Counted from the stretch's first letter, positions 56,838 through 61,222 are shown. The stretch is 64,000 bases of DNA from a phage (PZ534534.1), one strand, 5' to 3'. Translations and numbers: made by a program. Notes: generated from the letters alone by a model not told the origin.

Positions 56838-56883
56838 TTTATTTTTAGATGGCCTTGACTCCAGGGCCATCAATAAAGTAAAC
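56838..56883 (+). promoter_or_regulatory. conserved hairpin plus TAAAGT element, copy 1
   Basis: GATGGCC(56848-54)/GGCCATC(56865-71) stem, loop TTGACTCCAG, then 13 bp to TAAAGT (56874-79); gene starts at 56917. Confidence 0.5.
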
Positions 56884-56916
56884 TAACCACAGTTGAGCGG
56901 AAAGGGGGGCTTAAAG

Positions 56917-57036
56917 ATGAGTACTACACGCCAGCACACAAAGGTAACTATTATCGTTTGCATCATTGGGTACATCCTGGCGCAAATGTTGATGGGTAGC
57001 GCCAACGGTGTCGCAAAATTTTTCTTAAACTTTTAA
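56917..57036 (+). CDS. small membrane peptide
   Basis: 39-aa ORF below track cutoff; AAAGGGGGG RBS; hydrophobic core VTIIVCIIGYILAQMLMG. Confidence 0.35.
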   Translation: MSTTRQHTKVTIIVCIIGYILAQMLMGSANGVAKFFLNF

Positions 57037-57064
57037 TTGACAAGCTAACTTAAATCGATATAAT
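57037..57064 (+). promoter_or_regulatory. sigma70 consensus promoter
   Basis: TTGACA-N16-TATAAT. Confidence 0.55.
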
Positions 57065-57115
57065 AAGCACATAAACGGGAAAACTTCCCAGAATACACAA
57101 AAGGAGAAAAACACC

Positions 57116-57457
57116 ATGACTACTATGACCGCCGCAGAAAAAGCTATGCAGATCGCTGAACTGAAAAAACAGATCGCAGACCTTGAGAATAAGATCGATA
57201 ACTTTGAAATCGACGAGGACAAGTACGACGAAAACTATGATGAATGGTTAGACGAGATCTACGGCGAAATTATGATCGGAAACATTTCTTTTCTTCCGTC
57301 GCGTATCCTCAAGGAGTTAGATCCTATCGCTTACCGCTGCGGATTTAGCGACTACATCGACAGCCTGGATATTGAGGACGATGAAGAATACCAGGAATTG
57401 CAGACAGAGCTGGAAGAAATGAAAGAAGAGCTTTCAGAGCTGGAAGAAAACGAGTAA
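57116..57457 (+). CDS. highly acidic protein (DNA-mimic candidate)
   Basis: 113 aa, strongly Asp/Glu-rich with coiled-coil ends; AAAGGAGAAA RBS. Confidence 0.45.
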   Translation: MTTMTAAEKAMQIAELKKQIADLENKIDNFEIDEDKYDENYDEWLDEIYGEIMIGNISFLPSRILKELDPIAYRCGFSDYIDSLDIEDDEEYQELQTELEEMKEELSELEENE

Positions 57458-57459
57458 AA

Positions 57460-57505
57460 TTTATTTTTAGATGGCCTTGACTCCAGGGCCATCAATAAAG
57501 TAAAC
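57460..57505 (+). promoter_or_regulatory. conserved hairpin plus TAAAGT element, copy 2
   Basis: Same sequence as copy 1; next gene starts at 57545. Confidence 0.5.
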
Positions 57506-57544
57506 TTTACACTGTTAACACTGAACTAATGAGGAGTTAAAACC

Positions 57545-57790
57545 ATGGCAGCACTAATCACAAAATATTATGCGCCCACCAACACCAAAAGCGCCCGTAT
57601 CATGGTAAAAGGCTTCGGACGTAAAAAGGTTTACACCTGGGATTATGCCTTAGACACGGAAGACAACTACACCAACGCGATGACCGATTTTATTAATGAT
57701 CTGAACACGCGGATCTTGACAAATTATAAAATTACCGATATTGCCTATATAGGGGAAGGCGGGATCTGTTTTGTCGGTATCGTCAAATAA
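57545..57790 (+). CDS. hypothetical protein
   Basis: 81 aa ORF with GAGGAG RBS. Confidence 0.45.
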   Translation: MAALITKYYAPTNTKSARIMVKGFGRKKVYTWDYALDTEDNYTNAMTDFINDLNTRILTNYKITDIAYIGEGGICFVGIVK

Positions 57791-57794
57791 GCTG

Positions 57795-57835
57795 TTTTTT
57801 CGGTGGTCCTGGTAGCAGGGCCATCTATAAAGACA
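57795..57835 (+). promoter_or_regulatory. degenerate copy of hairpin element
   Basis: GGTGGTCCTGGTAGCAGGGCCATCTATAAAG retains right arm and TATAAAG box; upstream of 57866 gene. Confidence 0.3.
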
Positions 57836-57865
57836 GTTTATCAACACAATGAAAGGAGAAAGTAC

Positions 57866-58219
57866 ATGATCAGCGGGGCAAGTTTTATTATTGGCGCTAT
57901 TGCTACGGCTTTAATTGTAAACAAGATCCAATCTAAAAACGAAAAAGAGAGCAACGCGCTCACAGAATACCCATTTTGGGTATTCAACGACAATGAAGAC
58001 TACATTATCAAGTACAAGAATGAGAAGGGCGACCAGGTAACACCGCGACCGATCCCGGCTTACAAAATGCAGGAAACACTATACCGCCTAAAGGCTGGGG
58101 GCGCAAAAATTGTAGACTTTTGGGGATACGATCACACAGATCAGGAAGTTATAAAGCGCCGTATCCGGGCTATTCAGGCCAATATTGAAGTTAGCAAGGG
58201 GGGAATATATGAAAATTAA
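57866..58219 (+). CDS. membrane-anchored protein
   Basis: ATG 57866 after AAAGGAG; N-terminal TM segment ISGASFIIGAIATALIV. Confidence 0.45.
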   Translation: MISGASFIIGAIATALIVNKIQSKNEKESNALTEYPFWVFNDNEDYIIKYKNEKGDQVTPRPIPAYKMQETLYRLKAGGAKIVDFWGYDHTDQEVIKRRIRAIQANIEVSKGGIYEN

Positions 58220-58406
58220 TTTCGAGAAAATTGTAAAGCGCCCTCATGATTCCGAAGAGCTGCCAGAACGCCGCCAGCGTAACAATAAACTGAATAAGCC
58301 AAAAAGGTTTGGGAAGATCTGGCGTAATCATTATGATCGTAAATTGCCCGGCCTACTTTTGGAACGTGAACGACAGGCAGAACGATACCGCCATAAAGAC
58401 AAATAA
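58209..58406 (+). CDS. small basic protein
   Basis: ATG 58209 after AAGGGGGG; Arg/Lys-rich; 65 aa. Confidence 0.4.
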   Translation: MKINFEKIVKRPHDSEELPERRQRNNKLNKPKRFGKIWRNHYDRKLPGLLLERERQAERYRHKDK

Positions 58407-58414
58407 CAACCAAC

Positions 58415-58445
58415 GCCCCGCCATTGTGCGGGGCTTTTTATTTCT
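58415..58445 (+). terminator. rho-independent terminator
   Basis: GCCCCGC/GCGGGGC stem followed by TTTTTATTTC. Confidence 0.6.
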
Positions 58446-59583: not shown

Positions 59584-59591
59584 ATAAAGTG

Positions 59592-59619
59592 TTGCAATAA
59601 CCTAAAAACCTGCTATATT
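59592..59619 (+). promoter_or_regulatory. sigma70-like promoter
   Basis: TTGCAA-N16-TATATT. Confidence 0.45.
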
Positions 59620-59673
59620 AAAACTCAAGGGGGCAAGACGTTTGCCCCCACACAAAACAAAGAGGAAAACATC

Positions 59674-60054
59674 ATGAAAAACACTACTAAAGCTATTGAC
59701 ACCGTTATGTTTAACCTGGTTACCTTTCGCGAGGATATGAAAGATCTTCCGCGTGAAACAGTGTGCGACCATATCGAAAACTATCGCAAACTAATCAAAG
59801 AGTTGCCTTTAAAACGTGATCAGTATGCGGCTAACGCCATGCTTAATGCCATGATCAAAAAGATGATCCAGTGTGATTTAACTCTAGCCTATGATTATGC
59901 GGGTGGTCGTTTTGCAGTATACAATCAGCCCGTGCCCGGTATGAGCACCACCGAAGAATTGCACGCGCTCAATCTAAAACAAGACGTGTGGGATAGTATG
60001 CCTCGCGTGGTGGTATGGGTAGAAAGCGGAAAGATTTACGGCGATAATTTTTAA
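59674..60054 (+). CDS. hypothetical protein
   Basis: 126 aa ORF with AAGAGGAAAA RBS. Confidence 0.45.
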   Translation: MKNTTKAIDTVMFNLVTFREDMKDLPRETVCDHIENYRKLIKELPLKRDQYAANAMLNAMIKKMIQCDLTLAYDYAGGRFAVYNQPVPGMSTTEELHALNLKQDVWDSMPRVVVWVESGKIYGDNF

Positions 60055-60063
60055 TCAGGTAAC

Positions 60064-60090
60064 AGGCGGCATATTTGCCGCCTTATTGTT
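60064..60090 (+). terminator. rho-independent terminator
   Basis: AGGCGGC-ATATTT-GCCGCCT hairpin followed by TATTGTT. Confidence 0.45.
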
Positions 60091-60118
60091 AATCAGAACT
60101 GTAAAAGAGGTACATAGA

Positions 60119-60490
60119 ATGGAATTTATTATTTTGGCTGTATTGGTTGCCTTGTTTAACGCCTGGATCGCTGGCAAGATGGGAAGATCCGCCTTTTTAT
60201 GGTTTATTATATCTATTTTCCTGGGGGTGGTTGCAACTATTGTATTGGTTATCCTTGCAATTGTTGACAAGGGGAATAATAGAAAGGGTAAAGTATTTTC
60301 AGACCTGTACGACGCTCAAACGTTTGTCAACGCCTATTATAGTGATCTTCCAGTCTCCCTACGTTGCAGCCTTGCACAACAGGTTTTCGATGAAGCTAAA
60401 ACCAGAGATCACGCCCATGAGATTTGTTTAACTGAGGCGGATCGCTTATTTGAGAGGAATAGAAAATATGTGGGCCAGCCGTTTAAATAA
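60119..60490 (+). CDS. membrane protein
   Basis: ATG 60119 after AAAGAGG; two hydrophobic helices in N-terminal half. Confidence 0.45.
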   Translation: MEFIILAVLVALFNAWIAGKMGRSAFLWFIISIFLGVVATIVLVILAIVDKGNNRKGKVFSDLYDAQTFVNAYYSDLPVSLRCSLAQQVFDEAKTRDHAHEICLTEADRLFERNRKYVGQPFK

Positions 60491-60833
60491 TACCACGTTA
60501 ATTAATCCATTTAGTGAAGATTTGAGGCCAGCCGCCTGGCGGGATGGATTCAATAATGAAAGCTTTATTTTCAGGCCTGATCTTAAGGAATTTTATAACA
60601 ATGGATCGAACAACGACAGAGATAATTTTTCTTGTAATGTGCGTGGTGATAATACTCCTGGGGGCCATTGCAAACCACGTCACTACTAACAGGAGGAAAG
60701 GGGGAGACGATGACACCCAAGGATAAGCCCCGCACCGATAAGGCGCGCCGTGTTATGGTATGGCTGGAGATCATCGCCCTTGAAATATTGTTAGGCGTAG
60801 GGATGTATTTTATCGCTGTACGCACCTGATAAC

Positions 60834-60862
60834 GGCCCCCGATCCCTGGGGGCCTAACTTTT
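60834..60862 (+). terminator. putative rho-independent terminator
   Basis: GGCCCCC-GATCCCT-GGGGGCC hairpin followed by TAACTTTTC. Confidence 0.45.
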
Positions 60863-60885
60863 CAAAAAATTTTTCTTCCGGGGTG

Positions 60886-60913
60886 TTGCAATCCGGTCCA
60901 GAATATGGATAAT
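60886..60913 (+). promoter_or_regulatory. sigma70-like promoter
   Basis: TTGCAA-N16-GATAAT; shares AATATGGATAATA box with promoter at 61706. Confidence 0.45.
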
Positions 60914-60973
60914 AACAATCAACGGGGAGACACTCCCCCACCACATAGACAAAGTTCCAAAAGGAGAAACAAA

Positions 60974-61174
60974 ATGAGCAACAATATCCGCGTTATTAAC
61001 TTCAAAAAAGAAGAAAAAATTGCTGTGCTGGTTGATGGTCAAGAAATATTCAAGGGGTATTATGAAGATCATCAGGTGGCGATCAGTATTACCCGCGTGA
61101 TTGGTTATCATAATTTCTACCCCCAAGGCGCTGAGGCAGCAGTTAAACGAATCAAAGAGATTGTAGGCCTGTAA
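60974..61174 (+). CDS. small hypothetical protein
   Basis: ATG 60974 after AAGGAG; 66 aa. Confidence 0.45.
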   Translation: MSNNIRVINFKKEEKIAVLVDGQEIFKGYYEDHQVAISITRVIGYHNFYPQGAEAAVKRIKEIVGL

Positions 61175-61176
61175 AA

Positions 61177-61222
61177 TTTATTTTTAGATGGTCTTGACTC
61201 CAGGACCATCAATAAAGTAAAT
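61177..61222 (+). promoter_or_regulatory. conserved hairpin plus TAAAGT element, copy 3 (compensatory variant)
   Basis: Arms GATGGTC/GACCATC: both changed relative to copies 1-2 but still complementary; TAAAGT at 61213-18. Confidence 0.5.

Follow-up and report, generated by a model that had tools for sequence, protein, structure and literature searches.

Four copies of one interrupted hairpin were identified on the plus strand between small early genes of the phage sequence PZ534534.1, of which a stretch of 64,000 nucleotides (the window) was analyzed. The fold of these elements is kept by selection, as RNA of the mRNA sense, at all four intercistronic positions, and we lean toward reading them as sites at which the host RNase III processes the polycistronic early mRNA of this rV5/FV3-like myovirus. 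Comparison of the surrounding region of approximately 5.3 kb with GenBank produced 124 phage records at 90–95% identity, all of them Vequintavirus (rV5, FV3, EdH4 and similar), i.e., E. coli myoviruses with genomes of approximately 137 kb. The four elements are located in a long leftward early transcription unit of small genes.

Location and number of the copies

The degenerate 32-nt core GATGGYCTTGACTCCAGGRCCATCAATAAAGT matched the plus strand of the window three times, at 56848, 57470 and 61187, while no matches were found in 100 shuffles. A repeat search recovered 57-nt copies at 56838, 57460 and 61177 (copies 1, 2 and 3, respectively) and a fourth one, 76% identical, at 57796 (copy 4), in agreement with an earlier note on this sequence which had described three copies and a degenerate fourth upstream of genes. 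As folded hairpins, the four copies span 49–55 nt each. All of them begin 0–5 nt after the stop codon of the upstream gene (TGA 56834–36, TAA 57455–57, TAA 57788–90 and TAA 61172–74), and the next start codons (ATG 56917, 57545, 57866 and 61266) follow 25–45 nt 3' of the copy ends, with the ribosome-binding site of the downstream gene being outside the hairpin in each case.

A genome-wide search for further copies, which the earlier note had proposed as a check, was run on the complete FV3 genome (136,947 bp) by fuzzy matching and with a covariance model, and both returned the same four sites and no others. The covariance model, built from 40 copies and applied to the window, the whole of FV3 and T7, found the four known sites, no diverged extras, and nothing in T7. 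All four sites are confined to 4.4 kb of a 137-kb genome. The element was not found in the E. coli genomes searched, and an Rfam scan of the 54–64 kb region gave no match at the four sites at E ≤ 1. The pattern CAGGNCCATCNATAAAG matched 59 loci in IMG/VR, nearly all by chance, with two or three contigs being rV5-like. In a distant blastn search with a 6-kb region, Phapecoctavirus, Justusliebigvirus and jumbo phages shared single genes with the query, but not the elements. The GenBank comparison also contained 17 records of the MG0656xx series, labeled as 'Campylobacter phage' and UNVERIFIED, which are 90–95% identical to E. coli Vequintavirus genomes and are probably mis-assigned or contaminant phages.

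Structure of the hairpin

Folding of the sense-strand RNA produced one interrupted hairpin shared by the four copies, with z values from −5.4 to −7.3 and a minimum free energy (MFE) of −21 to −30 kcal/mol. The upper stem consists of 10 bp, formed by GAUGGCCUUG and CAGGGCCAUC and including one U.G pair, and is closed by the 4-nt loop ACUC; it is followed by a 2x3 internal loop (UA on the 5' side, AAU on the 3' side) and by an A/U lower stem of 8–13 bp, in which the upstream T-run UUUAUUUU pairs with AAAGUAAA. The total helix amounts to approximately 20–23 bp, with the upper stem being G/C-rich. This changes the picture given in the earlier note, where a 7-bp inverted repeat had been described with TTGACT in its loop, followed by TAAAGT as a free-standing box: the stem extends to 10 bp once the G.U pairs are counted, the loop is ACTC with the TTG of TTGACT base-paired in the upper stem, and TAAAGT forms the 3' strand of the lower helix, where its partner is the upstream TTTATTTT run.

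Copy 1 (56836–56884, plus strand) has an MFE of −24.0 kcal/mol over its 49 nt and of −26.4 kcal/mol (z −6.4) in a 66-nt context, and scored 84 bits with the covariance model. Its lower stem is formed by 56836–45 and 56875–84, with the A of the stop codon TGA as the first paired base, and its upper stem by 56848–57 and 56862–71; the tetraloop ACTC occupies 56858–61, and the internal loop consists of TA at 56846–47 and AAT at 56872–74. Copy 2 (57458–57506, plus strand; z −5.7, 83 bits) has a core identical to that of copy 1. Copy 3 (61175–61223, plus strand; z −5.4, 81 bits) carries a double substitution from C-G to U-A. The diverged paralogue, copy 4 (57787–57841, plus strand; MFE −29.4 to −30.1 kcal/mol, z −7.3, 76 bits), retained the architecture with a different sequence: its upper stem is formed by GGTGGTCCTG (57802–11) and CAGGGCCATC (57816–25), the loop is GTAG, the internal loop consists of TC and TAT, and the lower stem has 13 bp and includes the stop codon TAA at 57788–90, while TTGAC is lacking. 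A sliding-window hairpin scan of the whole window (at least 18 pairs, MFE ≤ −18) let through too many structures to be of use.

Three other identities of the hairpin were considered and rejected. The T-run is located 5' of the stem and the A-run 3' of it on both strands (the 3' flank being AATAAAGTAAAC, and the reverse strand giving TAAAAATAAA), and the terminator scan does not list the four sites; since the stem is not followed by a U-tract on either strand, the hairpins are not intrinsic terminators. Mimicry of a CRISPR repeat or of a host REP element was rejected on the grounds that the sequence is unlike the E. coli repeats, and the E. coli search was concordant. For a single-stranded DNA hairpin promoter of the N4 type, the G.U pattern fits RNA better, and according to the literature phages of the rV5 type have no RNA polymerase of their own: none is encoded by rV5 (PMC3606486), and the same follows from the literature on the related Certrevirus CB7.

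Selection on pairing and strand specificity

The alignment comprised 40 distinct sequences from 14 Vequintavirus genomes: the four sites were taken from the window, from ten GenBank relatives and from three IMG/VR loci. Over a structure of 20 pairs, 97.9% of the 800 cells were standard pairs, and RNAalifold arrived at the identical structure when no structure was supplied. None of 500 shuffles matched either the observed paired percentage or the covariation score, and sliding the 3' partners by 1–3 columns lowered the pairing to 35–58%. Five pairs have changes on both sides: among them, pair 14–54 appears as A-U 30 times and as U-A nine times, pair 11–57 is U-A in 26 and C-G in six, and pair 10–58 is GC in 17, AU in 11 and GU in seven. 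Pair 26–40 is UA in a single sequence out of 40, copy 3 of the window. This is the compensatory change pointed out in the earlier note, and it proved to be a genuine double change from C-G to U-A on opposite arms (T61192 and A61205): the other copies in the window have C and G at these positions, as do 13 of 13 relatives examined, and it is therefore specific to the lineage of the window. The claim that the pairing is under selection, made in that note from the window, was correct and became much better supported after inclusion of the relatives and of copy 4. Among the copy-4 orthologues, a stepwise series of G-C, G-U and A-U was observed, while indels fall in loops, altering the spacing between the hexamers and retaining the helices (copy 1 of locus L037 and copy 1 of Phage 203).

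The strand of action was indicated by the wobble pairs. G.U pairs, which would be A.C on the opposite strand, made up 12.9% of the cells, and one U.G pair was present in 39 of the 40 sequences. Whereas 97.9% of the cells were paired in the sense orientation, the antisense strand reached 85.9%, and its MFE of −12 to −16 kcal/mol was 7–17 kcal/mol worse than that of the sense strand (−20 to −29 kcal/mol). In the upper stem, copy 4 differs from copies 1–3 at three positions of the 5' strand with the 3' strand being identical, and all three differences are transitions exchanging Watson-Crick and G.U pairs. The strand asymmetry together with the wobble exchanges points to RNA in the mRNA sense and not to a duplex-DNA operator or promoter box.

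Candidate RNase III sites

The RNase III-type processing site, mentioned as an alternative in the earlier note, is the reading which the evidence favors. For direct comparison, the T7 sites R0.3, R0.5, R1, R1.1 and R1.3 were extracted from the T7 genome and folded with the program used for the elements. The T7 cuts at R1 and R1.1, which are reported at 3138 and 5887 (Dunn and Studier 1983), lie 3 nt beyond the upper stem. By analogy with these positions, the cuts are predicted after T56874 in copy 1, T57496 in copy 2, T57828 in copy 4 and T61213 in copy 3, all on the plus strand.

The substrates of E. coli RNase III contain about two helical turns (at least 20 bp) of double-stranded RNA with irregularities being allowed, and a helix of 11 bp separates the tetraloop from the scissile bond (PMC1540722). 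The elements have 10 plus 8–13 bp around the 2x3 internal loop, and the upper stem of 10 bp continues into a non-canonical pairing, A.A in copies 1–3 and U.U in copy 4, so that this loop is located at bp 11. The distal box consists of U-A followed by U.G, the latter being needed for optimal reactivity in a model substrate (PMC1540722); in copies 1–3 the same pairs occupy bp 2–3 from the loop, with U29-A37 present in 40 of 40 sequences and U28.G38 in 29 of 30. A descriptor combining a stem of at least 9 bp, a loop of 4–5 nt and the distal box matched T7 R1.1 and copies 1–3, and by chance it also matched about one site per shuffled window, or approximately 3% of hairpins of at least 9 bp. The proximal box is composed of G-C, A-U/U-A, A-U and A-U/U-A, with a G-C pair acting as an antideterminant that stops binding at position 2 and catalysis at position 4 (PMC1540722). 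Position 2 (bp 9) is occupied by an acceptable A-U in copies 1–3 and by G.U, with the guanine 2-amino group in the minor groove, in copy 4, while position 4 (bp 11) is A.A in copies 1–3 and U.U in copy 4, compared to C.U in the native R1.1; a G-C pair was thus present at neither of the two positions. Internal loops are known to limit RNase III to one strand, leaving a protective 3' hairpin on the product (PMC1540722, PMC3867540).

On this basis, we infer that the cut falls on the 3' side of the internal loop and that the two products have different fates. The host RNase III would bind the two-turn helix and, owing to the distortion which the internal loop introduces at the target site, would cut the 3' strand alone, after the U of AAU or UAU. 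Once separated, the upstream cistron would end in a protective 3' hairpin, while the downstream cistron or cistrons would gain a new 5'-monophosphate end approximately 40 nt before the start codon, so that the two halves of the operon could differ in stability or translation, as in the T7 early mRNAs.

Several observations weigh against RNase III. Copy 4 has U-A followed by C-G in place of the distal box, and positions 1 and 3 of the proximal box are U-A and G-C instead of the preferred G-C and A-U. The distal box itself is weakly diagnostic, supportive rather than decisive, since among the T7 sites R1.1 alone has it in the canonical form. Copies 1–3 carry sigma-70-like hexamers at 18-bp spacing, and 29 of 30 of their sequences retain the two loop bases of TTGAC, A and C. 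Most of the covariation stems from one old paralogue split, copy 4 versus copies 1–3, with a handful of changes among orthologues, which leaves few independent compensatory events. Copy 1 of phage Gotham has no 3' arm, and the hairpin may have other readers, such as a phage RNA-binding protein, or act as an exonuclease barrier without cleavage. Finally, literature searches for any Vequintavirus gave no transcript map and no RNA 5'/3'-end or cleavage data.

Operon context

The scan of the window with the sigma-70 consensus found 37 sites compared with 22 ± 5 expected by chance. The promoters of the three operons and the terminators closing them are on the plus strand. A sigma-70-type promoter TTGACA-16-TAAACT at 56364–56391, with 10 of 12 matches, would drive the gene 56441–56836 and read through copy 1. 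The consensus promoter TTGACA-16-TATAAT at 57037–57064 (12/12), whose orthologue is annotated as P192 in the rV5 record, would drive the gene 57116–57457, copy 2, the gene 57545–57790, copy 4 and the gene 57866–58219; the operon of copies 2 and 4 is closed by an intrinsic terminator with a GC stem and TTTTT at 58415–58434, which is an annotated terminator in EdH4. A third sigma-70-type promoter at 60886–60913 (9/12), preceded by a terminator at 60834–60854, would drive the gene 60974–61174, copy 3 and the gene 61266–61565, and this operon is closed by a terminator-like hairpin at 61622–61651. In EdH4, the terminator downstream of the copy-3 operon follows an extra gene that the window lacks. 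The resulting orders are promoter 56364, gene, copy 1, gene; promoter 57037, gene, copy 2, gene, copy 4, two genes, terminator 58415; and promoter 60886, gene, copy 3, gene, hairpin 61622, and the scan found no plus-strand terminator between any promoter and its hairpin. Such a layout suits an intercistronic signal separating the first cistron from the rest. Pfam and PHROG scans assigned the flanking proteins exclusively to families of unknown function, with no candidate binding protein among them.

Near-consensus sigma-70 promoters (TTGACA/TTGCAA, 16 bp, TATAAT-like) were present at 56364–56420, 57037–57090, 58875–58930, 59592–59649 and 60886–60943, and each of these five is followed within approximately 10–15 nt by a short hairpin of G/C type, such as ACGGGAAAACTTCCCG, which occurs twice, or GGGGGCAAGACGTTTGCCCCC. 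These promoter-proximal hairpins would lie at the extreme 5' ends of the transcripts, in an arrangement of promoter and stem-loop like that of the PeSLs (promoter-early stem-loops), and possibly act as 5' stabilizers. An identical 20-mer, ACTTTTCAAAAAATTTTTCT, occurs at 55331–55350 and 60857–60876; the second one is located directly after a terminator and approximately 10 bp upstream of a promoter −35, and looks like an UP element. A 34-nt repeat with 76% identity (CCTG..GCC.AAAAGGCCCCCA..TATG.AA) was found in intergenic positions downstream of terminators, at 58473–58506 and 62077–62110.

Recombination between the copies

In the IMG/VR locus L027 (IMGVR_UViG_2051223002_000007), positions 217–300 correspond to 56838–57520 of the window in such a way that the upstream flank of copy 1 is fused to the downstream flank of copy 2. 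The intervening 622 bp, comprising two small genes and the promoter at 57037, are missing, and the deletion evidently arose by recombination between the repeats. In phage Gotham (MT682716, locus L064, 6508–6560), the 3' arm of copy 1 has been lost (GATGGCCTTGACTCCA-ATCAATAAAG) and the hairpin cannot form; because this phage is viable, it represents a natural knock-out indicating that copy 1 is dispensable. Loop sequences were shared between copies of one genome (loci L001, L065, L066 and L073), with ACAC in copies 1 and 2 of EdH4 and ACUU in copies 2 and 3 of rV5 and copies 1 and 2 of APCEc02, which suggests gene conversion or concerted evolution among the copies. Repeats of another kind were observed at 54775–54960, where an early-region intergenic gap of approximately 300 bp contains three tandem units of approximately 65–74 bp (TTTC..GTACTCGATCT..TTTTCGTTTTC..GGATTTTCTG), iterons or a regulatory array being the possibilities.

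Alternative explanations

An unlikely explanation, although the strongest of the alternatives, is a composite cassette resembling the PeSLs of the T4-type phages RB49 and phi1, acting as a promoter at the DNA level and as a hairpin at the RNA level. The stop codon would be followed by an A/T-rich stretch, a −35 TTGACT in the hairpin top, a −10 TAAACT or TAAATT 18 bp further on, a Shine-Dalgarno sequence and the start codon; the stem-loop would act as an attenuator of transcripts coming from upstream, and the repeats would double as recombination sites for gene shuffling. The corresponding hexamer pairs are TTGACT-18-TAAACT at 56855–56884 and 57477–57506 and TTGACT-18-TAAATT at 61194–61223, all on the plus strand, so that copies 1–3 score 9/12 with a T-rich run upstream, while copy 4 has none and nevertheless keeps the full structure without a −35-like hexamer. 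In the Gotham record, two of the orthologues carry the label 'promoter predicted by PhagePromoter'; however, 9/12 matches are frequent by chance, judging from the numbers of sites found and expected in the window, and the genuine early promoters of the region score 10–12/12 with spacers of 16–17 bp. Published PeSL stem-loops can overlap the −35, have G-T pairs and run from the stop to the next start codon (PMC2839356), and consensus promoters with short stem-loops are abundant in the same early region. On the other hand, the −10 candidate is itself part of the lower stem (3' strand), and its conservation needs no promoter, because its single variable base (pair 10–58) covaries with the pairing partner; moreover, two relatives have a spacing of 19 bp owing to 1-nt insertions in loops. 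The ends of the L027 deletion within copies 1 and 2, as well as the loop variants common to several copies of one genome, fit a function of the repeats in shuffling. Yet a hairpin without a U-tract would be a poor intrinsic terminator, and a promoter leaves the selection for a helix of more than 20 bp with a fixed internal loop unexplained.

A role of the RNA hairpin independent of RNase III appears rather improbable: it might be an operator of translation or stability, bound by an RNA-binding protein of the phage or the host, or it might passively impede 3'-5' exonucleases or scanning RNase E, which would set different half-lives for the neighboring cistrons. The structure and the covariation fit it equally well, and the imperfect proximal box would matter less. 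The 3' strand CAGGGCCAUC[A/U]AUAAAG is identical in the four paralogues of the window, whereas the 5' strand varies via wobble, and this one-strand identity hints at sequence-specific recognition; the neighboring genes, however, include no candidate binding protein. The two-turn length, the internal loop at 11 bp and the U-A/U.G box are the specific cues of RNase III, and for a mere barrier, neither the A/U lower stem nor the constancy of the internal loop would be necessary.

A combination of both functions, a 'promoter-in-a-hairpin' with a weak internal sigma-70 promoter acting as DNA and an RNase III site acting as RNA in read-through transcripts, is doubtful, somewhat more so than either of the preceding possibilities. 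If it were true, the downstream gene would switch between a processed read-through mRNA and a hairpin-less primary mRNA, and the cassette would also drive modular gene exchange in the early regions of Vequintavirus, which would amount to a new class of PeSL-like elements with an RNase III substrate as their basis.

A protein-binding DNA element, either an activator box with TAAAGT as in the T4 MotA/AsiA middle promoters or a palindromic operator for a dimeric repressor, is very improbable. The sites are upstream of genes, an inverted repeat could in principle bind a dimer, and the 13-bp spacing, on which the earlier note based its comparison with T4, does fall inside the 12 ± 1 of T4 middle promoters (PMC2988021); but TTGACT does not look like the consensus (a/t)(a/t)(a/t)TGCTTtA of the MotA box, TAAAGT has 4/6 of TAtaaT where T4 middle promoters require an excellent −10 (PMC2988021), and both supposed boxes are paired RNA strands, with TAAAGT covarying with the upstream T-run, which is not required of a protein box. 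The rV5 genome paper found no homologues of the T4 late factors gp33, gp45 and gp55 (MotA/AsiA homologues were not searched for here) and argued from the wide distribution of sigma-70-type promoters that RNA polymerase might not be redirected in the manner of T4 (PMC3606486). The operator, also offered in the earlier note, is disfavored by the G.U strand asymmetry, since its half-sites would be non-equivalent in duplex DNA with 13% of the pairs being G.T, and copy 4 differs from copies 1–3 on one arm alone.

Significance

The rV5-like phages are widely isolated and have been used in biocontrol of E. coli O157 and in therapy work, while the Vequintavirus transcription program is so far known from promoter and terminator prediction alone. 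The rV5 genome paper predicted sigma-70-type promoters, rho-independent terminators and one T4-late-like motif, and nothing else, and the element is not in its supplementary table of promoters and terminators (PMC3606486). Should RNase III indeed act on the hairpins, they would provide Vequintavirus with its first defined points of post-transcriptional control, and the T7-style cutting of polycistronic early mRNA at interrupted hairpins would be seen to recur in a large myovirus unrelated to T7. Their annotation as promoters, present in at least one GenBank record, would then have to be corrected, and operon design would gain compact, conserved natural processing elements. The recombination observed between the copies makes a small contribution to what is known about the shuffling of early-gene cassettes. 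None of these findings overturns the current understanding.

Comparison with known systems

With intrinsic terminators the elements share a G/C-rich intergenic hairpin directly 3' of the stop codon, but the true terminators nearby, at 58415 and 60834, carry T-runs, in contrast to the four hairpins.

The PeSLs of RB49 and phi1 (Arbiol et al. 2010, PMC2839356) are likewise repeated intergenic cassettes among small genes of unknown function, consisting of a stop codon, an A/T-rich stretch, sigma-70-like hexamers, a stem-loop, a Shine-Dalgarno sequence and a start codon. Their copies serve as recombination end-points, as exemplified in Vequintavirus by the L027 deletion, and RB49 has homologues of rV5 early genes according to the notes in the rV5 record. 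However, PeSL promoters are very strong and of the consensus type, compared with 9/12 matches at an 18-bp spacer and none in copy 4 in Vequintavirus; PeSL stem-loops are short, G/C-rich and terminator-like, whereas the Vequintavirus elements are interrupted helices of 20–23 bp without a U-tract; and there are approximately 50 PeSLs per genome versus four copies in Vequintavirus.

The type of hairpin represented by the T7 R sites is already known, and it has not been described before for Vequintavirus. The two groups have no sequence homology, and they differ in that the lower stem of the Vequintavirus elements is a plain U-run/A-run duplex starting from the stop codon, that positions 1 and 3 of the proximal box are non-canonical, and that the four sites per 137 kb are all crowded into 4.4 kb. 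In common with the R sites of T7 (and T3), on the other hand, they are intercistronic and belong to early transcripts made by the host polymerase of a virulent coliphage. A lower stem, a small internal loop, a 9–10-bp upper stem and a tetra- or pentaloop were present in all five T7 sites folded. R1 has the same 2x3 internal loop with AAU on the 3' side, R1.1 shares the U-A/U.G distal box at bp 2–3 from the loop with copies 1–3, and in both R1 and R1.1 the internal loop is placed at 11 bp from the loop. The expected outcome, predicted here for the Vequintavirus elements, is also the same: a cut in a single strand that leaves a protective 3' hairpin (PMC1540722, PMC3867540).

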